Positions 33,186 to 50,551 of a DNA stretch of 64,000 nucleotides are shown one piece after another. The notes under the pieces were generated by a model, which saw only the letters and a program-made list of their open reading frames with translations, did not search any database and had not been told where the DNA came from. Made by a program: the position numbers and the translations under genes. The DNA comes from Corallococcus coralloides (GTDB taxonomy: Bacteria > Myxococcota > Myxococcia > Myxococcales > Myxococcaceae), in assembly GCF_004104415.1 (NCBI RefSeq), contig NZ_CP034669.1. One strand, given 5' to 3'. Numbering within the stretch: position 1 is the stretch's first letter; the number at the start of each line of letters is the position of its first letter.

Positions 33186-34115
33186 ATGGCCATGCGTCTC
33201 CGGACATGCGGTGCCCTTTTGCTGCTGCTCGTTTTCTCGGCCTGCGCCACGACGGAGCCACGCGCCCGTGCGCCAGCGGCCCGCGGCACGAGGGCTGCCA
33301 ACCTCCAACGAGCGGCGGCGCTGCCCTGGAAGGATGATGGGCGGTGCGTTGTCCGCGAGGCGTCCCAGCCTTGGCCCGTGCTGGTGGAGCGGTGCTATCC
33401 GGCGCTCGACCATGACCGCGTCGAGTTCCGTGACACCACGGGAAGATGCACGGTCGCCTCCGCTGCCGCCGCGACCTTGGGAATCGGGTTCTGCGTGCTG
33501 GCGGCCCCTGAAATCGCCGTGGGAGCCGTCATCGTCCTGGGCGTGGTGGTGGTCGGCGTCGCCATCAAGGATGCACTGGATGCGTACGAGTTCCGCCACC
33601 ACTACCCCGAGGAAGCGGGAACCTCACGGGGGACGAAGGTCGCGTCCCGAGATGCCGCAGCGAAGCCGAAGCCCAAGCTGCAACCGGAGCCAGCGGGCCA
33701 GGGCAGACAGCCCCCGGTGCCGCCAGTGCCCGTGGACAGGACGGGCCGCGCCAGCTGCGAGCCTGTTCCCGTGCGTCACGCAGGCGAGGATCGTGCGCAT
33801 AACGAGTGTGCCGATAAGTTTCCGCCCAACCGTTATCCCGGGATGGATGTGCTTGTTGGCGGTGTACGCTTCGATGCGCTGCAAGTCGGTGTCCGCAAAC
33901 TGTGGGAGATCAAGACCCACCAATTCGATTCGTACAATGATTTCATCCGCGACAGGGAAATTGAAAAGGAACTGATTCAACTAGAGAGTGAGCGAAGAGT
34001 CGCTGAGGCTTGTGGATATGACTTCATCGTTGGGGTGAGTACCGAGGCGCACAAAGCGGCGCTGGAGGAACTGGAACCCACTCTCATTATCGTCGTCACA
34101 GGGTGTCAACGATGA
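33186..34115 (+). CDS. lipoprotein polymorphic toxin with C-terminal PD-(D/E)xK-like nuclease domain (copy 1)
   Basis: Lipobox MAMRLRTCGALLLLLVFSAC, a Cys-containing N-domain, a ~35 aa hydrophobic TM hairpin-like segment, a Pro-rich linker, and a C-terminal GMDVLVGGVRFDALQVGVRKLWEIKTHQFDSY (D...E-x-K arrangement of restriction-endonuclease-fold toxins). The last ~60 aa differ between copies. Confidence 0.8.
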   Translation: MAMRLRTCGALLLLLVFSACATTEPRARAPAARGTRAANLQRAAALPWKDDGRCVVREASQPWPVLVERCYPALDHDRVEFRDTTGRCTVASAAAATLGIGFCVLAAPEIAVGAVIVLGVVVVGVAIKDALDAYEFRHHYPEEAGTSRGTKVASRDAAAKPKPKLQPEPAGQGRQPPVPPVPVDRTGRASCEPVPVRHAGEDRAHNECADKFPPNRYPGMDVLVGGVRFDALQVGVRKLWEIKTHQFDSYNDFIRDREIEKELIQLESERRVAEACGYDFIVGVSTEAHKAALEELEPTLIIVVTGCQR

Positions 34116-34867
34116 CTACGCGAAAAAGACTCACTCTCATTGTCTACGGGCCTGCGCTCTTGGTTGACGACAGCCGCCCCGTCGCCATCGTCAATGGGCT
34201 GGAGAAGGCGTTGCCCAGCTTACGACTGGAGTGGGAAGTCGGAGAAGGCGGGCGCCTTATTGCATTGCCACGGCGCGACGAATGGCTCTTGGCGAGCATT
34301 GAGGATGGAGGATTCCCTCTCATATGCAACGGGGACGAGAGTTATCCCGTGACGGTCAATGGAAGGGACCGGTCCGAGCTCTTCAGTCCCGGCGGCCAGG
34401 CCCAATTTGAAGTTCATGCCAAGCTGCCACTCGACGCACCTGTAATCGCTGCAGCGGCGGCTCTGCTTGAGGCCGTGGCGGAAGGGGCTCGTGCGTTCTG
34501 GGGGCACGCGTCGCCGTATGGTTACGGCTCGGAAGTAGCGAAGCAGTTCCGCCGCTCACCGGATGGGCCCGATCTCTCACCCCGTGGGCTTCCCATGCTC
34601 AACCTTCCCCAGAAAAGCCCCAGGCCTGAGACGCCCTATTTCCTGGGGTGGCTGAACTACTGGTCCGCTGCCGCCGCGGAGGTCATCGGGTTCCCGGATC
34701 CTGCTCGCGATGCCGAGCTGCTCTCGCGGGCGCGTCGCACTCCGTCGGGCGGGTGGATCGTGCAGCTCACGGAGACACCGCTCGATTACGACAACCCCCT
34801 GCACGTGGAAGCGCTCAAGCGGACCTATGAGCGCTTCCCGGAGATCGGTGGACGCGAGGGGCCCTGA
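34112..34867 (+). CDS. cognate immunity-like protein (copy 1)
   Basis: ATGA overlap with the toxin stop. The N-terminal ~110 aa are variable between copies and the C-terminal ~130 aa are nearly identical (…WLNYWSAAAAEVIGFPDPARDAELLSRARRTPSGGWIVQLTETPLDYDNPLHVEALKRTYERFPEIGG). Confidence 0.75.
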   Translation: MTTRKRLTLIVYGPALLVDDSRPVAIVNGLEKALPSLRLEWEVGEGGRLIALPRRDEWLLASIEDGGFPLICNGDESYPVTVNGRDRSELFSPGGQAQFEVHAKLPLDAPVIAAAAALLEAVAEGARAFWGHASPYGYGSEVAKQFRRSPDGPDLSPRGLPMLNLPQKSPRPETPYFLGWLNYWSAAAAEVIGFPDPARDAELLSRARRTPSGGWIVQLTETPLDYDNPLHVEALKRTYERFPEIGGREGP

Positions 34868-34989
34868 TGCCCCGTTGCCGTTACCGCGCGTCCGCGCTCA
34901 GCGCCGTGCTTGTCGCGTACTCGGCCGTGACCAGGGCGAGGGCTCCTGCGGGGGGGGTGGCGCTGCACCAACCCGATGTAGACACCTGA
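34867..34989 (+). pseudogene. degenerate remnant of the Cys-rich peptide gene (unit 1/2 junction)
   Basis: tgATG overlap with the immunity stop. It encodes MPRCRYRASALSAVLVAYSAVTRARAPAGGVALHQPDVDT*. Its 3' DNA is homologous to the 3' end of the 32884..33114 gene. Confidence 0.3.
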
Positions 34990-35008
34990 CGGGAAGCATT
35001 CCCATCAG

Positions 35009-35032
35009 CCTCCGAGTCCCAGGGCTCGGAGG
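35009..35032 (+). promoter_or_regulatory. 24-nt palindrome upstream of toxin gene copy 2
   Basis: Identical CCTCCGAGtcccagggCTCGGAGG, 22 nt before the ATG at 35054. Confidence 0.35.
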
Positions 35033-35053
35033 CTTTCCAATTGTTGCGAAGAG

Positions 35054-35983
35054 ATGGCCATGCGTCTCCGGACATGCGGCGCCCTTTTGCTTCTGCTCAT
35101 TCTTTCGGCCTGCGCCACGACGGAGCCACGCCCCAGGGCGTCAGCGGCCCGCGGCACGAGGGCTGCCAACCTCCAACGAGCGGCGGCGCTGCCCTGGAGG
35201 GATGACGGGCGGTGCGTTGTCCGCGAGGCGTCCCAGCCCTGGCCCGTGCTGGTGGAGCGGTGCTATCCGGCGCTCGATCATGATCGCGTCGAGTTCCGTG
35301 ACACCACGGGAAGATGCACGGTCGCCTCCGCTGCCGCCGCGACCGTGGGAATCGGGTTCTGCGTGCTGGCGGCCCCTGAAATCGCCGTGGGAGCCGTCAT
35401 CGTCCTGGGCGTGGTGGTGGTCGGCGTCGCCATCCAGGAAGAATGGGACGCCTATGAGCTCCGCCATCTCTACCCCGAGGAAGCAGGAACCTCACGGGGG
35501 ACGAAGGTCGCGTCCCGAGATGCTGTAGAGAAACCGAAGCCCAAGCTGGAACCGGAGCCAGCGGGCCAGGGCAGACAGCCCCCGGTGCCGCCTGTGCCCG
35601 TGGACAGGACGGGCCGCGCCAGCTGCGAGCCTGTTCCCGTGCGTCACGCGGGCGAAGATGATCCCCATAACGAGTGTGCCGATAGGTTTCCGCCCAACCG
35701 TTATCCAGGGATGGACGTACTTGTGGGCGGTGTACGCTTCGATGCGTTGCAAGTCGGCGCGCGTGTGTTGTGGGAGATCAAGACCCATCAATTTGATTCG
35801 TACAATTCCTATATCCAAAAAAGAGAGATCGCGAAGGAACTCAAGCAATTGGACAAGGAGCGAGCCGTCGCATTGGCATGTGGATATCGCTTCGTTATTG
35901 GGGTGAGCACCCAAGCGCACAAAGACGCGCTACTCGAAGCAGATTCCTCATTCGATGTCGTCGTCACGGGATGCACACGATGA
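35054..35983 (+). CDS. lipoprotein polymorphic toxin, PD-(D/E)xK-like C-terminus (copy 2)
   Basis: 309 aa. It is near-identical to copy 1 through residue ~230, and its C-terminal tail diverges (…YNSYIQKREIAKELKQLDKERAVALACGYRFVIGVSTQAHKDALLEADSSFDVVVTGCTR). Confidence 0.8.
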   Translation: MAMRLRTCGALLLLLILSACATTEPRPRASAARGTRAANLQRAAALPWRDDGRCVVREASQPWPVLVERCYPALDHDRVEFRDTTGRCTVASAAAATVGIGFCVLAAPEIAVGAVIVLGVVVVGVAIQEEWDAYELRHLYPEEAGTSRGTKVASRDAVEKPKPKLEPEPAGQGRQPPVPPVPVDRTGRASCEPVPVRHAGEDDPHNECADRFPPNRYPGMDVLVGGVRFDALQVGARVLWEIKTHQFDSYNSYIQKREIAKELKQLDKERAVALACGYRFVIGVSTQAHKDALLEADSSFDVVVTGCTR

Positions 35984-36735
35984 CCAGACCTGGACGCCTC
36001 ACCTTCATTGTCTACGCGCCTGCTCTCGTGGGTAAAGATGGCCGCACGCTCGATGTCGTCCATGGGATGGAAAGGGCCTTCCCTGGCTTGCGGCTGGCGT
36101 GGCGGCTCTCGGATGGCGGTCGCCCCATCGCGCTGCCGCGACGCGACGATTGGCTCGTGGAAAAGATTGAGGACGGGGGATTCCCCATTGTGTGCAACGG
36201 GGACGAGGGTTACCCCGTGACGGTGATGGGGTGGGGAAGACTGGGAATCCTCAAGCCGGGCGGTCAGCCCCAGTTCGAAGTGCATGCAGAAATGCCTTTA
36301 GACGAGCCAGTGATCGCGGCGGCGGCGGCCGTGCTTGAGGCCATGGCGGAGGGAGCACGCTCATTCTGGGGCCACGCGTCGCCGTATGGTTACGGCTCGG
36401 AAGTAGCGAAGCAGTTCCGCCGTTCGCCGGACGGACCTGAGCTCTCCCCCCGTGGGCTTCCCATGCTCACCCTTCCCGAAAAGAGCCCCAGGCCGGAGAC
36501 GCCCTCTTTCCTGGGCTGGGTGAACTATTGGTCCGCTGCCGCCGCGGAGGTCATCGGGTTCCCCGATCCTGCTCGCGATGCCGAGCTGCTCTCGCGGGCG
36601 CGTCGCACTCCGTCGGGCGGGTGGATCGTGCAGCTCACGGAGACACCGCTCGATTACGACAACCCCCTGCACGTGGAAGCGCTCAAGCGGACCTATGAGC
36701 GCTTCCCGGAGATCGGTGGACGCGCGGGGCCCTGA
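35980..36735 (+). CDS. cognate immunity-like protein (copy 2)
   Basis: ATGA overlap. Its N-terminus diverges (MTRPGRLTFIVYAPALVGKDGRTLDVVHGMERAFPGLRLAWRL...) and its C-terminus is identical to copy 1. Confidence 0.75.
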   Translation: MTRPGRLTFIVYAPALVGKDGRTLDVVHGMERAFPGLRLAWRLSDGGRPIALPRRDDWLVEKIEDGGFPIVCNGDEGYPVTVMGWGRLGILKPGGQPQFEVHAEMPLDEPVIAAAAAVLEAMAEGARSFWGHASPYGYGSEVAKQFRRSPDGPELSPRGLPMLTLPEKSPRPETPSFLGWVNYWSAAAAEVIGFPDPARDAELLSRARRTPSGGWIVQLTETPLDYDNPLHVEALKRTYERFPEIGGRAGP

Positions 36736-36848
36736 TGCCCCGTTGCCGTTACCGCGCGTCCGCGCTCAGCGCCGTGCTTGTCGCGTACTCGGCCGTGACC
36801 AGGGCGAGGGCTCCTGCGGGGGTGTGGCGCTGCACCAACCCGATGTAG
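36735..36848 (+). pseudogene. degenerate remnant of the Cys-rich peptide gene (unit 2/3 junction)
   Basis: MPRCRYRASALSAVLVAYSAVTRARAPAGVWRCTNPM* retains the GVWRCTNP C-terminus of the intact peptide gene. Confidence 0.3.
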
Positions 36849-36875
36849 ACACCTGACGGGAAGCATTCCCATCAG

Positions 36876-36899
36876 CCTCCGAGTCCCAGGACTCGGACG
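36876..36899 (+). promoter_or_regulatory. palindrome variant upstream of toxin gene copy 3
   Basis: CCTCCGAGtcccaggaCTCGGACG, a slightly degenerated copy. Confidence 0.3.
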
Positions 36900-36920
36900 C
36901 TTTTCAATTGTTGCGAAGAG

Positions 36921-37850
36921 ATGGCCATGCGTCTCCGGAGCTGCGGCGCCCTTTTGCTTCTGCTCGTTTTCTCGGCCTGCGCCACGACGGAGCCACGCCC
37001 CAGGGCGTCAGCGGCCCGCGGTAAGAGGGCTGCCAACCTCCAACGAGCAGCGGCGCTACCCTGGAAGGATGATGGGCGGTGCGTTGTCCGCGAGGCGTCC
37101 CAGCCCTGGCCCGTGCTGGTCGAGCGGTGCTACCCGGCACTCGACCATGACCGGGTCGAGTTCCGCGACACCACGGGAAGATGCACGGTCGCCTCCGCTG
37201 CCGCCGCGACCGTGGGAATCGGGTTCTGCGTGCTGGCGGCCCCTGAAATCGCCGTGGGAGCCGTCATCGTCCTGGGCGTGGTGGTGGTCGGTGTCGCCAT
37301 CCAGGAGGAATGGGACGCATATGAACTGCGCCACCACTACCCCGAGGAAGCTGGGACCTCACGAGGGACGAAGGTTGCGTCCCGAGACGCTGTAACGAAG
37401 CCGAAGCCCAAGCTGGAACCGGAGCCAGCGGGCCAGGGCCGGCAGCCCCCAGTGCCGCCTGTGCCCGTGGACTGGACGGGCCGCGCCAGTTGCGAGCCTG
37501 TTCCCGTGCCTCACGCGGGCGAAGATGATCCCCATAACGAGTGTGCCGATAAGTTTCCTCCCAACCGTTATCCAGGGATGGACGTACTTGTGGGCGGTGT
37601 ACGCTTCGATGCGCTGCAAGTCGGCGTGCGCAAACTGTGGGAGATCAAGACCCACCAATTCGATTCATATAACGCCTTTGTCCAGGATCAGGAGATTGCG
37701 AAGGAAGTGATACAACTGAAGAAGGAGCGAGCTGCCGCAGCGGCATGTGGATACGACTTCGTCGTGGGGGTGAGTACCCAAGCGCATAAAGACGCGCTAC
37801 GCGAAGAAGTTCCCGCGATCGATGTCGTCGTTACGGGGTGTGCACGATGA
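36921..37850 (+). CDS. lipoprotein polymorphic toxin, PD-(D/E)xK-like C-terminus (copy 3)
   Basis: 309 aa, with a third variant of the C-terminal tail (…YNAFVQDQEIAKEVIQLKKERAAAAACGYDFVVGVSTQAHKDALREEVPAIDVVVTGCAR). Confidence 0.8.
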   Translation: MAMRLRSCGALLLLLVFSACATTEPRPRASAARGKRAANLQRAAALPWKDDGRCVVREASQPWPVLVERCYPALDHDRVEFRDTTGRCTVASAAAATVGIGFCVLAAPEIAVGAVIVLGVVVVGVAIQEEWDAYELRHHYPEEAGTSRGTKVASRDAVTKPKPKLEPEPAGQGRQPPVPPVPVDWTGRASCEPVPVPHAGEDDPHNECADKFPPNRYPGMDVLVGGVRFDALQVGVRKLWEIKTHQFDSYNAFVQDQEIAKEVIQLKKERAAAAACGYDFVVGVSTQAHKDALREEVPAIDVVVTGCAR

Positions 37851-38608
37851 CCAGGCGGAGAGCCCTTACCCTTATCGTCTACGCGCCTGCGCTCATGGGT
37901 AACAACAGCCGCACAGTCGCCGTCGTCCATGGGATGGAGAAAGCGTTCCCCGGCCTACGCCTGGAGTGGAAACTAGATGAAGGCGGGCGCCCCATTGCAT
38001 TGCCACAGCGCGATGCATGGCTCTTGGCGAGCAACAAGGACGGTGGATTCCCAATCGTGTGCAACGGCGATGAGAGTTACCCCGTGACGGTCTGGGGAAT
38101 GGAAAGCTCAGGCATCCTCAGCCCAGGCGGTCAGGCCCAGTTTGAAGTCCACGCAAAGCTGCCCTTGGACGAGCCTGTAATCGCGGCAGCGGCGGCTCTG
38201 CTTGAGGCCGTGGCGGAGGGGGCACGTTCATTCTGGGGGCACGCGTCGCCGTACGGCTACGGCTCGGAAGTCGCGCAGCAGTTTCGCCGATCACCGGACG
38301 GACCTGAGCGTTCCCCTCGTGGGCTTCCCATGCTCAAGCTTCCAGAGACACTCCCAGCGCCTGAGATTCCCTGTTTCCTCGGGTGGCTGAACTATTGGTC
38401 CGCGGCAGCCGCGGAGGTCATCGGGTTCCCGGATCCTGCTCGTGATGACGAACTGCTCTCGCGGGCACGCCGCACTCCGTCGGGCGGGTGGATCGTGCAG
38501 CTCACGGAGACTCCGCTCGATTACGACAACCCCGTGCACTTGGACGCGCTCAAGCGGGCCTACGAACGCTTTCCAGCAATCGGCGGGCGCACAGCGCCTT
38601 TGCCCTGA
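37847..38608 (+). CDS. cognate immunity-like protein (copy 3)
   Basis: ATGA overlap. N-terminal variant (MTRRRALTLIVYAPALMGNNSRTVAVVHGMEKAFPGLRLEWKL...). Confidence 0.75.
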   Translation: MTRRRALTLIVYAPALMGNNSRTVAVVHGMEKAFPGLRLEWKLDEGGRPIALPQRDAWLLASNKDGGFPIVCNGDESYPVTVWGMESSGILSPGGQAQFEVHAKLPLDEPVIAAAAALLEAVAEGARSFWGHASPYGYGSEVAQQFRRSPDGPERSPRGLPMLKLPETLPAPEIPCFLGWLNYWSAAAAEVIGFPDPARDDELLSRARRTPSGGWIVQLTETPLDYDNPVHLDALKRAYERFPAIGGRTAPLP

Positions 38609-38614
38609 AACAGG

Positions 38615-38650
38615 ACAGCCGCCCGTCACCTCTCCGGCGCGGGCGGCTGT
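38615..38650. terminator. GC-rich hairpin between convergent genes (bidirectional terminator candidate)
   Basis: ACAGCCGCCCG-x14-CGGGCGGCTGT is an 11-bp stem, located between the immunity copy 3 stop (38608) and the rdgC 3' end (38667). Confidence 0.45.
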
Positions 38651-38666
38651 TCCATCAATCTCCCAC

Positions 38667-39993
38667 TCAGCCCCGGGCAGCGCGGGCGTCACGGCCCTTG
38701 GCGCGGGCGGCCTTGGAGAGCAGGTCGCTCCCCTTCTCCTCGCCCTTCATCCACGCCTTCAGCGCGGGCACCACCTGCTTGCTCCAGGCGCGTCCGGCGC
38801 GCACGGCCAGGAAGTCCTGCACCAGCGCGTCCACGATGGCGGAGAGCTGCTCGGTCAACTCCAGACGCTCGGAGAGCTGATCATCCTCTTCCTCCGTCAT
38901 GAGCGCGGGCAGCTTGGCGGCGCGAATGTCCAGGAACTCGGAATCCAGCGTGACTTCGTATTCGCGCTCGCCGTGCGAGATGCGCAGCCGCGCCTGGGAC
39001 ACCAGCAGGCCCCGGTCCAGCGAGTGGCGCACGTTCTCCGAATACGGCGCCAGCGTGCCCTTGGCGCTCATCTCCGTGACGTCGCCGGCCACGCCGCGCA
39101 GCACCACCTTGCCCAGGTAGAGCACCACGACGCCCGCGCCGTCGTGCTCGACCAGCGGGTCGCCCGACTCCGAGCGCCACAACAGCCAGGTCATGAACTC
39201 GCGGCCCAGGTAGGCCCGGCCGCGCAAGAGCTGTTCGCGCGCCTTGCCCTTTTCGACTTCGGCTTCGTCCTTCTCCTCCTCCGTGGCGGCACCATCCACG
39301 CCGACATCGCCCCGGGCGAACGCCGCCTCTTCCCTCGCCTGCTCACGCCTCGCCATGGGTGTCCTCCACCGAAGCCGTCGCCGGCAGGTCCATGCCAATG
39401 AGCTCCGCCGTGGGGCCCAGGGCCTTCTCGTCGATGCCCGCGCGCTGCGCCATGGACGCGGGCGTGATGCCAATCACCTTCACCGCGAGGGCGCCTTCCA
39501 GCGCCACGCAGATCTCATCCACCGTCTTGCGCGACGCGGCCCAGACCTGCACCGTGTGCGTCTTCAGGTTCCACGTCACGTCCAGCGTGCTGGTGCGCGG
39601 CACCGCGCGCTGACGCAACAGCTGCTTGAGCTCCGCGCGCTGCTTGTTCTTCTCCGCGCGCGCGGGCGGCCGGCCGTTCTCCTTGCCGAAGGCGGCGGCC
39701 CACTTGTCCAGCTCCGACTTCATCATCGACGCGGGCACCTTCAGCGTGTCGATGCGGAAGGAGAACAGGGCGTACTCGCCATAGAAGAGGTTGCCGGTGG
39801 CGAACTCGGAGGACTCCGGGTTCTCCAGCTCGACAAACCCTGCGGCGCGCTCCTCCTCGGAGCGGCGGTCGATGGGCTCGAACGCATGGGACTTGAGTCC
39901 CTTGGTCATCCAGCGCTTCACGTCGGACGGCGCATCCTTGGCCGGCTCGGTCCGGAAGCGCGAAAAGGTCACGGCACCACGTAGGACAGGCAT
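38667..39993 (-). pseudogene. rdgC: recombination-associated protein RdgC homologue, split into two overlapping frames
   Basis: The N-terminal two-thirds (39343..39993, MPVLRGAVTFSRFR...ELKQLLRQRAVPRTSTLDVTWNLKTHTVQVWAASRKTVDEICVALEGAL) and the C-terminal third (38667..39356, ...MTWLLWRSESGDPLVEHDG...LSERLELTEQLSAIVDALVQDFL) each align with consecutive parts of RdgC. They lie in different frames and overlap at 39343-39356. Confidence 0.6.
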
Positions 39994-45677: not shown

Positions 45678-46847
45678 ATGCACAAGGCAGAGGGCTTCTT
45701 CGTCACGATGGCCATCGCGGGACTGTCCCTGGGAGCGCCCCCGGCGCTCGCGGCGGACAGGGAGCCGCTCGACGCCCGATTCCAGCAGGCGAAGCCTGTC
45801 GCGTGCGACGTCCAATGCGGTGACGTCATCACGCAGCACACGAAGCTCACGCATGACCTCTCCTGCCCGGGCACGGACGAGCCCGCGCTCCGCATCGAAG
45901 GTGACGGCGTCGTCCTCGATCTGGGTGGCCACACCGTGCGCCGCTCGAGTCCCGTCCAGCAAGACACCCTGGGCATCGTGGTCACCAGCACCAGCATGGT
46001 GCGCAACGGCACGATTCGCGGCTTCGCACGAGGCGTCCAGACCGAGGGGGTCGACTCCCTGCGGGTGCACAAGCTCACGTTCGCCGACAACGGCACTGCC
46101 ATCTACAACTACTTCTCCACCACCTACTTCCTCATCACGAATTCGCGTTTCATCGGCAATGACGCCGGGTTGGGAAGCGAGATCGACGCGTCCACCGGTA
46201 CGTTCGACGTGAGGTCGAGCCACTTCGAGAACAACAGCCTCGGCATCTACCTGGATACCCACGCGGCCGACGTCCTCGATTCCACCTTCATTGGGAACGG
46301 GCTCGGCATCTACTGCTTCGCCGGAGGCGCCCGCGTCCGGTCGAGCACCTTCGCGCGAAACGCGGCCGTCGCCACCACGACCGTGCCCATCGGGGGCCGC
46401 GACATCTGCGATGTGTTCCGTTTCGAGGACACGCTCATCGCGGACAACGCGTCGTTCGCCCCAGCGGAGATACCCATCTGGAATGTGGTCCAGCTCGACA
46501 TGATCAACAACTGGATCGTGGGCAATGACAATGGGCTTACAGCCGGCTCATTCCAGGTCTACATCCAGGGCAATACCTTCTGGGACAATGCGGGCGGACT
46601 GACTTTGGGAGACACTCCCATTGTCAGCCTCCCACAGACAGGCATCATCCGAGCCAACCGGTTCCTACGGAACGACGGTGACGGCCTCCGCGTCCTCCCG
46701 GCCAGCACGCCCACGGTGATTGGCAACGTGGCCCTGGGAAACACGGGCTGGGGCATCCACGCGCCTACCGCCTTCGACGGGGGCGGCAACGTCGCGCGAG
46801 ACAACGGCGCCGGCAACTGCGAGGGCATCGTCTGCGCCCCCTACTGA
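45678..46847 (+). CDS. secreted right-handed parallel beta-helix repeat protein
   Basis: Signal peptide, then a periodic ~22-residue repeat rich in G/N/I/V (…IGNDAGLGSEID…NNSLGIYLD…IGNGLGIYCF…), typical of NosD/pectate-lyase-like beta helices. Confidence 0.78.
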   Translation: MHKAEGFFVTMAIAGLSLGAPPALAADREPLDARFQQAKPVACDVQCGDVITQHTKLTHDLSCPGTDEPALRIEGDGVVLDLGGHTVRRSSPVQQDTLGIVVTSTSMVRNGTIRGFARGVQTEGVDSLRVHKLTFADNGTAIYNYFSTTYFLITNSRFIGNDAGLGSEIDASTGTFDVRSSHFENNSLGIYLDTHAADVLDSTFIGNGLGIYCFAGGARVRSSTFARNAAVATTTVPIGGRDICDVFRFEDTLIADNASFAPAEIPIWNVVQLDMINNWIVGNDNGLTAGSFQVYIQGNTFWDNAGGLTLGDTPIVSLPQTGIIRANRFLRNDGDGLRVLPASTPTVIGNVALGNTGWGIHAPTAFDGGGNVARDNGAGNCEGIVCAPY

Positions 46848-46860
46848 CCCCTCGCCCATC

Positions 46861-47856
46861 TCAACCGATGCGCTTCAACTCCTGGGTCAGCAGCTCCTCC
46901 AGGTGCCGGATGTTCCGGTACACGAGACACCGGTAGCTGGACACGTCGAAGCGCAATTCCTTCACGTCGCGCACCAGCAGCAGGGTGGGCTTGCCGCGTC
47001 CCCAGGCATAGCCCACCTCCAGATAGACATTGGGGTTCGCCAATGACAGGTCCGCGATGACAACCTTCGCGGTGTCGATGCGGTCCCGGATGCGCTGGAT
47101 GATGGGCCCGTCGAAGACGGCCTGGTCCACCCGCTCGCACAGGAGCCCCGCCGCCTTCACGGGGTTCAGGATGCCGTAGTGGTAGGTGTCTTCCAGTTCC
47201 TGCGCGAAGGGCATCGCCACGAAGGCGTGGGGCTTCTCGTGGGAGTTCGCGCCCGCGGAGGCCATGGGCAGCGCCTGGACGAAGCGCGACGTCCTCCGCA
47301 CGCGGAAGCCCGTGGCCCCCATCAGCGGCTCCACGCCCGGCGTGAGCCCCAACCCCAGCGCCAACGCCTTGCGCAGCCGCTCCACCCGCTTGGGGTTGAG
47401 CTCCACCACCGTGATGCGCTCCAGGGCGCGGGGGCCACTGCCCCGCTGGAACGCGTCCACGAAGCCGCCCACCAGGGCCAGCACGGCCTCGTCCTCGTCC
47501 AGGCCGTAGTTGGGGCCGTGCACCGTGCACGCCAGGTGACGCACCTCGTGCCGGGGCTCCAGCAGTTGGAGCGCGCGCACGGAGAACTGGCGGATCTCGT
47601 GGTAGCCGAACTGCCGCAGCCGCACCGTGCCCAGGAAGAGCACCCACGGGGCGCCCAGGCTCCGGCGCGACTCGATGAAGCGGTGGTCCCCGGGGAGCAG
47701 GTCGAAGGCCTCCATGCCCACACCCGCCCCCTCCAGCCGGCGCGCCACCGCGCCGTCCGCCCCATGGAAGCCCTGCGCGTACTTCAGCAGCACGGCGTCC
47801 GCGGCCGTCTCTCCCACATCCCCCAGGTCCACCACGACGTCCAGCGTGTCTCCCAT
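46861..47856 (-). CDS. two-domain protein: N-terminal Macro-like domain + C-terminal nucleoside-2-deoxyribosyltransferase-like (SLOG/TIR-like Rossmannoid) domain
   Basis: N-terminus LDVVVDLGDVGETAADAVLLKYAQGFHGADGAVARRLEGAG resembles the Macro signature (GDIT..DAIVNAAN..GGGGVdgAI). C-terminus HAFVAMPF...DRIDTAKVVIADLSLANPNVYLEVGYAWGRGKPTLLL has the NDT/SLOG-type pattern (d.gt.fE.GyA.a.gKP). The overlapping alternative-frame ORF 46841..47896 is Arg/Gly-rich and rejected. Confidence 0.6.
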   Translation of the reverse strand: MGDTLDVVVDLGDVGETAADAVLLKYAQGFHGADGAVARRLEGAGVGMEAFDLLPGDHRFIESRRSLGAPWVLFLGTVRLRQFGYHEIRQFSVRALQLLEPRHEVRHLACTVHGPNYGLDEDEAVLALVGGFVDAFQRGSGPRALERITVVELNPKRVERLRKALALGLGLTPGVEPLMGATGFRVRRTSRFVQALPMASAGANSHEKPHAFVAMPFAQELEDTYHYGILNPVKAAGLLCERVDQAVFDGPIIQRIRDRIDTAKVVIADLSLANPNVYLEVGYAWGRGKPTLLLVRDVKELRFDVSSYRCLVYRNIRHLEELLTQELKRIG

Positions 47857-48069
47857 GGGCCCGGGACTGTAGGGTGTCCCGGTCCGCCCACGCCATCCCC
47901 GGCGCCCGTCCCGCCGCGTCAGGTGGGATGAACCCAGACGTGCCGAACGCCCCTCAATCCCTGCTCAAGGACGCCTCCTGGCTGCCTGGCTGTCTTTCAG
48001 GCCGCCTCCACGCCGCCTGTGAAGCGCTTCACAGTTTCCGCCCGGGCGGGCCGGTAGCATTTGCGCACC

Positions 48070-48963
48070 ATGTCCCTGTTCGCGCGCCTGCAGGCCCTGC
48101 TGTCCGCCCACCCGTCCGCCCCGGCCGCCGCCGGACAGACGCCCGCGACTCCCGCCGCGCCCCCGGCGGCGACCAGCGCCCCGGCGGAGGCGGAAGGTGC
48201 CTCCGAGCAGCAGCCGGTCTGCACACGCTACCTGCCCGCGGGACAGGTGGTGGTGCGCGAGGGCGACCCGGGACACTCGATGTTCGTGGTGCTGGAGGGC
48301 CGCGTCGCGGTGCTTCGCGGCGGCGACCCCGGCGGCAACACGGAGGTGGGCCGCCTGGGGGCTGGCGAGTTCTTCGGAGAGCTGGCGCTGCTCACCGGCA
48401 CGCAGCGCACCGCCACCATCGTGACGGTGGAGGACGCCGTGCTGCTGGAGCTCACCCAGGCCGGCGTCCGGGAGCTGGGCAAGGACTACGGCGTGAAGGG
48501 GGAGCAGATGCAGGTCGCCGCCCGGGAGCGCCTGCTCGCGGACGCGCTGCGCAGCAACCCGCTCATCGCCGCCCTGCCTCCGGAGGTGCAGCACGAGCTG
48601 GGAGACTCCTTCGTCCCCTGCACCGTCCCCGCCGGGGAGACGCTGCTCACCCGGGGCCAGCCGGGTAACGCGCTCTACATCCTCATCCGGGGCCAGTGCG
48701 AGGTCTTCCACACGCACAGCGACGGCCGCCAGTCCGCCTATCCCAAGCTGGAGGAGGGCGCCCTGTTCGGGGAGATCTCCCTGCTGCGCAGCCGGCTGGC
48801 CACCGCCACCGTGCGCACCGTGACGCCCTGCACGCTCCTCAAGCTGGAGCGCGACGTGTTCAAGAAGGCCTTCCTGGGCCAGCCCGACCTGCGCGGCGCC
48901 CTGGTGCGCCTGGGCCTGGAGCGGCTCAAGCACACGATCGAAGTCATGGGCGAAGCGAAGTAG
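48070..48963 (+). CDS. tandem cyclic-nucleotide-binding (cNMP) domain protein
   Basis: Two CAP-family cNMP-binding domains with FGELALLTGTQRTATIV and FGEISLLRSRLATATV phosphate-binding cassettes. Confidence 0.88.
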   Translation: MSLFARLQALLSAHPSAPAAAGQTPATPAAPPAATSAPAEAEGASEQQPVCTRYLPAGQVVVREGDPGHSMFVVLEGRVAVLRGGDPGGNTEVGRLGAGEFFGELALLTGTQRTATIVTVEDAVLLELTQAGVRELGKDYGVKGEQMQVAARERLLADALRSNPLIAALPPEVQHELGDSFVPCTVPAGETLLTRGQPGNALYILIRGQCEVFHTHSDGRQSAYPKLEEGALFGEISLLRSRLATATVRTVTPCTLLKLERDVFKKAFLGQPDLRGALVRLGLERLKHTIEVMGEAK

Positions 48964-49110
48964 TCCGCCGTCCCGCGCAATCCCAGACAGCCTGAAGCCC
49001 TGGGTCTACCGCAACGCCTTATCCAGGCCGAACGCGGCGAGGCGCTTGTCGACCCGCGCGCACCTCATCACGGGCAGCGCATCCTGCCGTAGCCGCTCGT
49101 CGCGACCTGC

Positions 49111-49698
49111 TCAGCCGCGGCTCAGCTCCCCGGCCTCCAGCATCGCGACGTACTTCTCCACCCAGCGCATGCGCGTCTCCGGCTTCTTCGAGTCGTGGAG
49201 CCGGAAGAGGATGGCGTAGCGGTTGGCGCCCTTGAGCGCGGCGAAGGCCGCCTTCGCCTTCGGGCTCTTCTCCAGCGCGAGCTTCAGGTCCTCCGGCACC
49301 TCCATGGTCCGCTGCCCCGCGTACGCCGCCTCCCAGCGGCCATCCGCGCGGGCGGATTCCACCTCCCGCAGGCCCGCGGGCTTCATGCGTCCGGAGGCGA
49401 CCAGGACCTCCACCTTGCCGCAGTTGATCTTCGACCACTTGCTGCGCGGCTTGCGGGGCGTGAAGCGCTGGAGCCAGTACTCCGAGTCGAACGCGCCCTT
49501 CTGCCCGTCGATCCAGCCGTAGCAGAGCGCCACCTCCAGCGCCTGCGCATACGTCACGGATGGGATGCCGGACTCGAACTTGGCGAGCTTCACCCAGACG
49601 CCCGGCGCGTCGACGTGGTTCTTCTCCAGCCACTTCTCCCACGCCTTCTCGGACGCGAAGGGCACGACGGGGAGCTCCTGCTTCGCCTTCGCCTTCAT
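49111..49698 (-). CDS. YdeI/OmpD-associated family protein
   Basis: ALCYGWIDGQK, FTPRKPRSKWSKIN and a C-terminal RYAILFRL motif, typical of this family. Start taken at MKAKAKQ. Confidence 0.8.
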   Translation of the reverse strand: MKAKAKQELPVVPFASEKAWEKWLEKNHVDAPGVWVKLAKFESGIPSVTYAQALEVALCYGWIDGQKGAFDSEYWLQRFTPRKPRSKWSKINCGKVEVLVASGRMKPAGLREVESARADGRWEAAYAGQRTMEVPEDLKLALEKSPKAKAAFAALKGANRYAILFRLHDSKKPETRMRWVEKYVAMLEAGELSRG

Positions 49699-49789
49699 GC
49701 AGTGCAACGCCTTTCCCTGCCCCGCGCCTCGCGCCGGGTTCATGACAATCCCACTCTACCGGAGGAAGGCAGCGCGGGCGGAAGCGGTT

Positions 49790-50551
49790 ATGAAACACGC
49801 CATGGCCGAAACCACCGACGCCCGTCCGCCGAACGCCGTGCCGCCCTCGCTCGCCCGCGTGGCCTTCCACGCCGTGGCGGCCGGGCTCACCCCGCTCATC
49901 CCCGTGCCCTTCCTGGACGACTACGCCCTGCGCCAGGTGCGCGAGCAGTCCGTGCGCGACCAGCTCAAGGAGAAGGGCCTGAAGGCGCCGGAAAAGGCCG
50001 TGGCGGTGCTCGCCGGCTCGTACGACGGGCGCAGCCTGGGCGGACGGCTGGTGTCCTACCTCAAGGCCGTGGCGCTCTTCCCCGTGCGCAAGGTGTTCCG
50101 CAAGGTCTTCTTCGTCCTCTGGGTGAAGGACTGCGTGGACCTGACGAGCGTGTGCCTGCACCACGGCTACCTGCTGCACCACGCGCTGGAGCGCGGCGAC
50201 CTGGACGCGGCCTCGCTCCAGGGGGATGCGCCCCAGAAGGTGCAGGCCGCCATCGTCGCCGCCTGCGCGGAGATGGACGCCCGCCCCATCAATCAGGCCC
50301 TGCGCCGCCTCTTCCGCAGCAGCCGGGTGTTGATGGCCGAGGCCACCCGCGTCTTCCTGGAGCCGAAGCGCGGCGGCACCCGCGTGCCCGACCCGAAGAC
50401 CGAGAACGCGGAGGTGAAGTCGCTCACCGACCGGCTCCTCCAGGAGATGTGGGAGGAGCGCGGCTACTTCACCGCGCTGCAAGCCCACTACGACAAGCAC
50501 CTGAAGCGCGGCCCCGCGTCCACCGAGCCCCAGCCCGCGACGGGCACCTGA
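49790..50551 (+). CDS. hypothetical protein
   Basis: Non-repetitive composition from MKHAMAET (internal Met of track ORF 49565..50551). It is divergent from the YdeI gene and no domain was recognised. Confidence 0.45.
   Translation: MKHAMAETTDARPPNAVPPSLARVAFHAVAAGLTPLIPVPFLDDYALRQVREQSVRDQLKEKGLKAPEKAVAVLAGSYDGRSLGGRLVSYLKAVALFPVRKVFRKVFFVLWVKDCVDLTSVCLHHGYLLHHALERGDLDAASLQGDAPQKVQAAIVAACAEMDARPINQALRRLFRSSRVLMAEATRVFLEPKRGGTRVPDPKTENAEVKSLTDRLLQEMWEERGYFTALQAHYDKHLKRGPASTEPQPATGT

Follow-up and report, generated by a model that had tools for sequence, protein, structure and literature searches.

A conserved myxobacterial protein that pairs a Macro-like with an NDT/DrHyd-like domain, and its possible role in NAD+/ADP-ribose-centred conflict

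Locus and gene

The window analysed here, a stretch of 64,000 nucleotides of Corallococcus coralloides contig NZ_CP034669.1, carries on its minus strand (46861..47856) a complete gene for a protein of 331 amino acids (aa), in which an N-terminal Macro-like domain precedes a C-terminal domain of the nucleoside 2-deoxyribosyltransferase (NDT)/DrHyd type. The two domains, together with the fusion partners found in relatives, point to a possible function in NAD+- and ADP-ribose-centred conflict. The open reading frame (ORF), which comprises 331 codons from its ATG start and has its stop codon at 46861-46863, coincides exactly with the one delimited in an earlier note made on this DNA from the sequence alone.

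Comparison of the 331-aa protein with databases returned 1687 proteins at E<=0.001. The best 120 of these 1687 matches are full-length, 56-96% identical and nearly all about 331 aa long, and derive from Corallococcus, Myxococcus (including MXAN_3123), Pyxidicoccus, Archangium, Hyalangium and Vitiosangium. Both Myxococcaceae and Archangiaceae have full-length orthologues, 331 +/- a few aa long and about 70% identical, and the protein of C. coralloides KYC2213 is 97% identical. Because of these matches and full-length orthologues, the ORF at 46861..47856 is a real, strongly conserved gene and not a chance reading frame. The GC content is high across the whole window, at about 70%. A family hidden Markov model (HMM) search found one copy of the family in the window and no second copy, the NCBIfam search with the 331-aa protein gave no informative match, a promoter and terminator scan of 46600-48200 gave no signal of relevance to the gene, and a literature search for 'MXAN_3123' returned no publication.

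An AlphaFold2 model built with 34 orthologues as input (mean predicted local distance difference test score, pLDDT, of 86) contains two well-defined domains separated by a disordered linker at residues 195-205. The flexible linker as a whole spans aa 191-207 (47236..47286, minus strand); pLDDT falls below 50 at residues 195-205 and the length of the segment varies in alignments.

N-terminal Macro-like domain

The N-terminal domain (aa 1-190; 47287..47856, minus strand) has the three-layer alpha/beta/alpha fold of macrodomains. Its best structural matches include macro 2 of PARP9 and macro 3 of PARP14, which are non-catalytic binders, with the macro-fold N-domain of leucine aminopeptidase close behind at 14.8, and Foldseek gave concordant results. 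The earlier note had recognised a Macro domain from the motif DVVVDLGDVGETAADAVLLKYAQGFHGADGAVA, which does lie at the N-terminus, with a spacer of four residues where the note had counted five. That assignment stands at the level of fold and clan and fails at the level of the Pfam family, where no Macro model (PF01661) matches by sequence; membership of the Macro group is thus one of fold and clan only.

Alignment of the domain to E. coli YmdB by hhalign, a weak match with a probability of 26%, is topologically complete and places G12-D13 on 'GD', D20 on the adenine-contacting Asp of 'VDVIVNAAN', G32-A-D34 on 'GGG-V-D' and Y117-G118 on the 'YG' of the diphosphate loop. The two regions that would line a ligand pocket were delimited from the translation, the hhalign alignments (to YmdB for loop 1) and conservation, and are the loop 1 region DAVLLKYAQGFHGADGA (aa 20-36; 47749..47799, minus strand) and the loop 2 region TVHGPNYGLDEDE (aa 111-123; 47488..47526, minus strand). 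A27 and a further alanine sit, in the hhalign alignment, at the positions of the catalytic Asn and His of MacroD.

Conservation across the family was counted in 260 two-domain proteins aligned to the family HMM and in a diverse set of 61 sequences that is biased towards long proteins; an exhaustive representative search had yielded 398 clusters (50% identity level) at E<=1e-30. All 260 proteins have Y85 and D120, and 257/260 have K25, while in the 61-sequence set D20, G32, D34, T111, H113, G114, G118, E121 and E123 are each present in at least 93%, including D20 in 58/61, G32 in 59/61, D34 in 57/61 and each of H113, E121 and E123 in 59/61. Y85, D120 and K25, the most conserved positions in the family as a whole, and the nine others all lie in or beside the two Macro ligand loops, showing a predicted polar pocket that is extremely conserved. 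This pattern suggests a pocket for an ADP-ribose-containing molecule, which it would bind and might also process.

C-terminal NDT/DrHyd-like domain

The C-terminal domain (aa 208-331; 46864..47235, minus strand) has an NDT-type Rossmannoid fold, as the earlier note had proposed from the motif ADLSLANPNVYLEVGYAWGRGKPTLLL, which is found in the C-terminal half of the protein. Overall conservation is higher in this domain than in the Macro-like domain, with D223, E241, R242 and a GYAWG motif prominent. The protein scores 24.8 bits against PF05014 (E=2.6e-5), under the gathering cut-off of 28.8, and 49/61 relatives match that model at E<=0.01, some of them above the cut-off (P0122, 40.3 bits). A search of the PDB with the single sequence gave weak matches to MilB only. 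In the HMMER alignments, E280 falls on the Glu of MilB 'HVEIGWA', making it the counterpart of the MilB/NDT catalytic nucleophile, and the MilB entry with Ala at the catalytic Glu position (4ohb) scores lower. E280 lies in the predicted active-site loop and helix DLSLANPNVYLEVGYAWG (aa 269-286; 46999..47052, minus strand; defined from the translation and the MilB alignment), which follows the third strand as does the catalytic Glu of these enzymes. Membership of the NDT/DrHyd superfamily is therefore supported by fold and catalytic Glu, though the PF05014 score is sub-threshold.

The domain also matches the PADLOC model for the Pycsar 'Effector TIR' (PDLC00733, E=1.7e-13), as do 59/61 family members down to E=6e-17, and its top viral structural match in BFVD is a CAP12/Pycsar-effector TIR-domain protein; Pfam PF10137 gave no match to the window protein. 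The strand-1 Tyr of NDT-type enzymes (Tyr7 in L. leichmannii NDT, Tyr13 in DNPH1) hydrogen-bonds the catalytic Glu and sets 2'-deoxy specificity, while NADase TIRs have Phe or Ala at that position (Shi et al. 2024, PMC11204291). Position 212, judged by eye to be the equivalent site, is F in 55/61 and Y in 4/61 relatives. If F212 does occupy the strand-1 Tyr position, it would fit a domain that cleaves NAD+ or another ribonucleotide. The SLOG classification that the earlier note had offered as an alternative was rejected, since LOG structures score below NDT and TIR structures and no SLOG family matches.

E280 is kept in 218/219 stand-alone proteins. Counted by cluster, it is present in 101/102 stand-alone and 27/37 N-terminally extended clusters (Fisher p=5.8e-6), being replaced by Q in six TIR fusions, by K in a seventh (P0176) and by G, T or L in three EAD fusions. 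Its near-complete retention where the protein stands alone fits an active enzyme in those forms.

Distribution and domain fusions

The Macro-NDT dyad is patchily distributed at 42-50% identity over at least 10 bacterial phyla and one archaeon, including Myxococcota, Acidobacteriota, Chloroflexota, Cyanobacteria (Nostocales), Binatia, Gemmatimonadota, Bacteroidota, Armatimonadota, several Proteobacteria and Methanosarcina, and it is rare, with 351 pattern matches among about 185,579 species genomes. This patchy spread suggests an accessory gene that has moved horizontally. In Corallococcus and the other Myxococcaceae the pair stands alone and is vertically inherited.

About a quarter of the representative clusters (37/143) carry an N-terminal extension. 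In the 61 sampled proteins, with the bias given above, the extension is a TIR_2 or TIR domain in 22, EAD7 in six, EAD1 in two, CHAT in two and bDLD1 in one; caspase C14, vWA/TerY, DUF4062 and HTH domains also occur in this position. The TIR fusions include ThsB-like forms that match PADLOC ThsB1 (PDLC00420) down to E=4.5e-60. Some relatives have C-terminal extras, namely an HD, an astacin-like or a second NDT-like domain. A 626-aa homologue in the Methanosarcina sp. UBA402 metagenome-assembled genome (MAG; locus L071, 7146-9026) has a caspase domain (Peptidase_C14) before the Macro-like and NDT-like unit, which shows that the dyad is shared by bacteria and archaea and can be combined with a protease effector.

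One MAG, which bears the label 'uncultured Enterobacterales' and has a GC content of 0.72, carries a copy on each of two contigs, at 52% identity to the window protein; its GC content of 72% makes that label doubtful. Relatives of the C-terminal domain only, with 30-33% identity, form the C-terminus of 250-320-aa plasmid proteins encoded beside integrases or recombinases in Bacillus mycoides (L087, 3434-4387), Agrobacterium tumefaciens (L088, 3626-4384) and Serratia proteamaculans (L089, 3527-4402), and the N-terminal regions of these three proteins have no Pfam match. Similar C-domain relatives lie near the replication module of Staphylococcus temperate phages. A mobile-element origin of the full-length gene was considered and rejected, as the plasmid and phage collections hold only such C-domain relatives in other architectures.

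Genomic context

The flanking genes in the window encode a beta-helix protein, a D-Ser-dehydratase-like protein, a protein with two cyclic-nucleotide-binding (cNMP-binding) domains, an OmdA-like protein, a protein of no assigned family and an Lnb_N protein. The cNMP gene (48061..48963, plus strand) is divergent from the target across a gap of 204 bp and, as the earlier note had stated, has tandem cNMP-binding domains (PF00027, E=4.4e-46, in two stretches). It is not a conserved partner. Across 84 loci surveyed by tblastn, only those of Corallococcus have the cNMP gene and the OmdA gene beside it at this position, and the cNMP gene is absent from the syntenic block of Myxococcus and Pyxidicoccus and from all distant loci. 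In C. llansteffanensis a DLH hydrolase gene sits between target and cNMP gene, and five more Corallococcus loci share the enlarged spacing. The cNMP gene together with the OmdA/YdeI-like gene (49111-49743, minus strand) makes up a Corallococcus-specific insert (48061-49743) in an otherwise conserved Myxococcaceae block. The significance that the earlier note had attached to this neighbour is therefore not borne out: its presence appears incidental, and functional coupling to it was rejected because the adjacency is limited to Corallococcus.

The corresponding block of M. xanthus resembles that of the window, with an S9 peptidase gene, a D-Ser-dehydratase-like gene, the target, a gene of no assigned family and an Lnb_N gene, and has no cNMP gene. 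In Archangium and deeper Myxococcota the target lies at unrelated loci. Outside the phylum, 27 loci gave 90 neighbouring genes, among which one is TIR-like and PADLOC matches are few and generic. TIR, SIR2 or cyclase partners, raised as candidates in the earlier note, do not recur among these neighbours, and the homologues' neighbours do not share a metabolic operon, the arrangement that the same note had set against a signalling role. A conserved operon partner was likewise rejected, as the upstream same-strand genes at seven distant loci differ (ThrE, squalene cyclase, AstA, amidase, PMT_2 and DUF885).

Comparison with known systems

By analogy, the protein would be most like a receptor-effector of the ThsA or PycTIR type, yet it is not a member of Thoeris, Pycsar or CBASS, because the partner genes and architectures that define those systems were tested for and are lacking. 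The ThsA effector of type II Thoeris uses a Macro domain as its receptor (Shi et al. 2024, PMC11204291) and has a TM-Macro architecture, as in EcThsA of E. coli CFT073 (PMC11204291), with signalling by His-ADPR (bioRxiv 10.1101/2024.01.03.573942). The likeness consists in a Macro-fold domain and an output domain within one polypeptide, and the TIR-to-Macro logic of Thoeris is mirrored in the relatives with a ThsB-like TIR fused before the Macro domain. However, the output of type II ThsA is a two-helix membrane region, whereas that of the window protein is a soluble NDT/DrHyd-type domain, and thsB adjoins thsA in Thoeris, whereas no thsB gene lies beside the window gene. Neither ThsA architecture (SIR2-SLOG or TM-Macro) is present, the window protein having a Macro-like domain followed by an NDT-like one and no Pfam SIR2, and ThsA macro chains are absent from the top 50-60 PDB matches of its Macro domain, which is nearer to the PARP9, PARP14 and MacroD types.

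The TIR-like NADase effectors of Pycsar and CBASS (PycTIR, Cap12, PF10137) resemble the C-terminal domain in its PDLC00733 match and in the shared conserved Glu in the loop and helix after strand 3. Their sensors are cNMP-binding, SAVED or STING domains, whereas that of the window protein would be Macro-like, and they have a cyclase or CD-NTase partner, whereas the window protein does not. The arrangement that defines Pycsar, a PycC cyclase gene beside an effector with a cNMP domain, is not present at this locus, where the target lacks a cNMP domain and the flanking genes include no cyclase.

The enzymes NDT, DNPH1 and MilB (PF05014; the 'DrHyd' superfamily of Burroughs and Aravind) share the fold of the C-terminal domain. 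The window protein differs from them in its sub-threshold score and in having Phe at the presumed site of the strand-1 Tyr, and its family in the additional conserved D223, E241 and R242 and in a Macro-like domain that always precedes the NDT-like one; the gene also lies outside any salvage or antibiotic-biosynthesis context. TIR, DrHyd and SLOG have been described as one clade of enzymes or sensors acting on N-glycosidic bonds (Iyer et al. 2022, PMC9503650). The M17 leucine aminopeptidase PepA has an N-domain of the Macro clan (PF02789), whose alignment to the window protein spans only the central 56 columns, and this N-domain is followed by a peptidase domain, which the window protein lacks.

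In multicellular prokaryotes, EADs and Death-like domains serve as adaptors that recruit effectors in conflict systems, and DrHyd and Macro are both listed among the NAD+/ADP-ribose-acting domains of those systems (Kaur et al. 2020, PMC7159879). The homologues of the window protein connect to these modules (PMC7159879; Kaur et al. 2021, PMC8195603) in having EAD1, EAD7, bDLD1, CHAT, caspase, vWA or TIR domains before the dyad, and the dyad leans likewise towards Myxococcota, Cyanobacteria and Chloroflexota. In contrast to the EAD and vWA-MoxR systems, the window protein has a Macro-like domain at its start in place of an adaptor, and no core NTPase, vWA or MoxR gene lies nearby. No description of the Macro-DrHyd dyad was found in Kaur et al. 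2020 (PMC7159879), in Kaur et al. 2021 (PMC8195603) or in the rest of the literature examined, a scope that excludes Burroughs et al. 2015 (NAR).

Proposed function and alternative explanations

Taken together, these results point, at somewhat less than even odds (a probability of about 45%), to a self-contained NAD+/ADP-ribose-centred conflict protein, acting in immunity or regulated cell death, in which a Macro-like ligand pocket would be linked to an N-glycosidase that is active. The N-terminal Macro domain would provide the conserved pocket for an ADP-ribose-containing small molecule, which it may bind only or also process, and the C-terminal NDT/DrHyd domain would be an active N-glycosidase with E280 as nucleophile, its most likely substrate being NAD+ or another ribonucleotide, as in TIR-like NADase effectors. 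The two domains would form an obligate pair, with occupancy or turnover in the Macro pocket coupled to the glycosidase. As the pair stands alone in Myxococcaceae, any activating ligand would have to come from elsewhere, possibly from TIR or ADP-ribosyltransferase (ART) enzymes at other loci or of an invader. The link to nucleotide-signal conflict systems, which the earlier note had reached from the domain pattern, gains independent support from the fusions to ThsB-like TIR, CHAT, caspase, EAD1, EAD7 and Death-like domains and from the PDLC00733 match.

Several observations weigh against this reading. The identity of the N-terminal domain is faint in sequence: no Pfam Macro model matches the window protein at E<=1 or any of the 61 diverse relatives at E<=0.01, the hhalign match to YmdB, over 155 columns at E=7e-4, has a probability of only 26%, and by sequence profile the domain is equally close to YmdB and to the leucine aminopeptidase N-domain (PepA-N, 56 columns, E=1.7e-3). 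PF02789 is matched by 2/61 of the relatives, and the family profile found no macrodomain in the PDB, its sole match being a leucine aminopeptidase (E=0.0077). No ADP-ribose binding is known for the leucine aminopeptidase N-domain. Some EAD-fused members with no other obvious catalytic domain have lost E280, so that the glycosidase cannot be the universal output of the family. The target is syntenic in Myxococcaceae, with a between-genus identity of 69-71% that compares with 66-77% for its housekeeping neighbours, and fast-evolving immune genes are not usually this syntenic or conserved. The 90 neighbours at the 27 loci in other phyla match 89 Pfam families, mostly housekeeping and none recurrent, and defence models are not enriched among them in a pooled scan. 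Nothing in the 64-kb window matched a TIR profile derived from the fused homologues, and the plasmid and phage collections contain no full-length homologue.

Two rivals stay alive because inheritance in Myxococcaceae is vertical and housekeeping-like, no defence-island context is seen and some adaptor-fused members have lost E280. The better placed of them, itself unlikely, is a housekeeping clean-up enzyme with no immune role, in which the NDT/DNPH1/MilB-like domain would hydrolyse the N-glycosidic bond of an aberrant or surplus nucleotide and the Macro-like domain would bind or pre-process a metabolite of the O-acetyl-ADP-ribose or ADP-ribose-1''-phosphate type. Such an enzyme would account for the vertical, syntenic descent in Myxococcaceae with housekeeping-like divergence, for the ordinary metabolic and transport genes that neighbour it in other phyla and for the absence of the full-length gene from plasmids and phages. 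It is hard to reconcile with the fusions to TIR, CHAT, caspase, EAD and Death-like adaptors or with the rarity and patchiness of the family; embedding in a salvage operon was never seen at the loci surveyed, and position 212, the presumed strand-1 site, has Phe and not the Tyr of NDT and DNPH1.

A doubtful second alternative, standing a little behind the first, is that the protein reverses ADP-ribosylation, the Macro-like domain stripping ADP-ribose that an extrinsic ART, such as a phage or competitor toxin, has placed on protein or nucleic acid, and the C-terminal domain being auxiliary (in binding, oligomerisation or further breakdown of ADP-ribose). The only universally invariant residues, Y85 and D120, belong to the Macro pocket, as do the near-invariant K25, H113, E121 and E123, and such a polar constellation is more typical of catalysis than of binding. 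D34 falls on the catalytic-loop Asp of MacroD in the hhalign alignment of 26% probability, and a 'G-L-D' after loop 2 is reminiscent of the catalytic Asp motif of TARG1. The EAD-fused forms, moreover, can lose E280 and keep the Macro residues, and a Macro domain without a coupled ART is the pattern from which enzymes countering foreign ADP-ribosylation have been predicted (Iyer et al. 2022, PMC9503650). Against this, the catalytic Asn and His of MacroD are replaced by Ala in the hhalign alignment, non-catalytic binders are among the best structural matches, and the near-perfect retention of E280 in stand-alone forms indicates that the C-terminal domain is not merely auxiliary.

A split Pycsar-like pair, in which the tandem cNMP protein would sense a cyclic nucleotide and control the TIR-like/NDT-like domain in trans, is very improbable and largely refuted by synteny: the divergent arrangement 204 bp apart, the match of the C-terminal domain to PDLC00733 (whose N-terminal part is presumably cNMP-binding) and the match of the neighbour's cNMP domains to PycTIR models all favour it, but the adjacency is confined to Corallococcus and interrupted in C. 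llansteffanensis, with the same enlarged spacing at five further loci, the cNMP gene is missing from the Myxococcus/Pyxidicoccus block and all 27 distant loci, the three nearest genes on each side include no cyclase, and cNMP-binding proteins are abundant in myxobacteria.

Should the conflict protein proposed here be confirmed, it would add a new receptor/effector pairing to TIR/NAD+/ADP-ribose immune signalling, with a Macro-type pocket driving an NDT/TIR-like glycosidase. The family exists in two forms, one fused to TIR, caspase or adaptor domains and the other an orphan stably and vertically inherited in Myxococcaceae, and the series of architectures could help to tell the sensor domain from the output domain. 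A more speculative extension, for which the chances are slim, is that social myxobacteria have fixed the protein in their core genome as an orphan receptor-effector. Its Macro pocket would sense an ADP-ribose-derived signal produced in trans by a TIR or ART enzyme, encoded at another locus or by an invader, and would switch on the NAD+/nucleotide N-glycosidase; the protein would then be a trans-acting single-gene Thoeris-like arm, possibly serving kin conflict or developmental cell death, and the TIR-Macro-DrHyd relatives would in that case be complete one-polypeptide systems that comprise generator, receptor and effector. MXAN_3123 in M. xanthus offers a tractable test of ADP-ribose-derived signals outside classical defence operons. 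Under the metabolite clean-up alternative, the protein would represent a new type of nucleotide hydrolase assisted by a Macro domain, and in either case the database names 'hypothetical protein' and 'nucleoside 2-deoxyribosyltransferase' under-describe it.

Other features of the window

The gene at 45678-46847 (plus strand), whose end lies 13 bp from the stop codon of the target, encodes a right-handed beta-helix/NosD-like protein (PF13229, E=3e-16; PF05048, E=2e-14). It separates the D-Ser-dehydratase-like gene from the target only in the window, in C. coralloides (L005) and in C. aberystwythensis (L009), and is therefore a recent lineage-specific insertion. On the other side of the target, the ORF at 49565-50551 (plus strand; 328 aa, no Pfam match) overlaps the opposite-strand OmdA gene by about 180 bp. 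It is conserved at 62-90% identity at the syntenic position in Corallococcus, Myxococcus and Pyxidicoccus, where the gene call in other genomes is about 240 aa long, and translation probably begins downstream of the ATG listed for the ORF.

Further from the target, the region 33186-38790 consists of three tandem units of about 1.87 kb with 82-87% DNA identity and a GC content of 0.63-0.66, compared with about 0.70. Each unit has two reading frames, one for a DUF6310 protein of 309 aa (PF19829, E about 1e-57; 86-90% aa identity), whose N-terminus resembles a lipoprotein signal, and one for a partner of about 255 aa (70-79% identity). The region looks like an array of a paralogous two-gene cassette, possibly of the toxin/immunity type.

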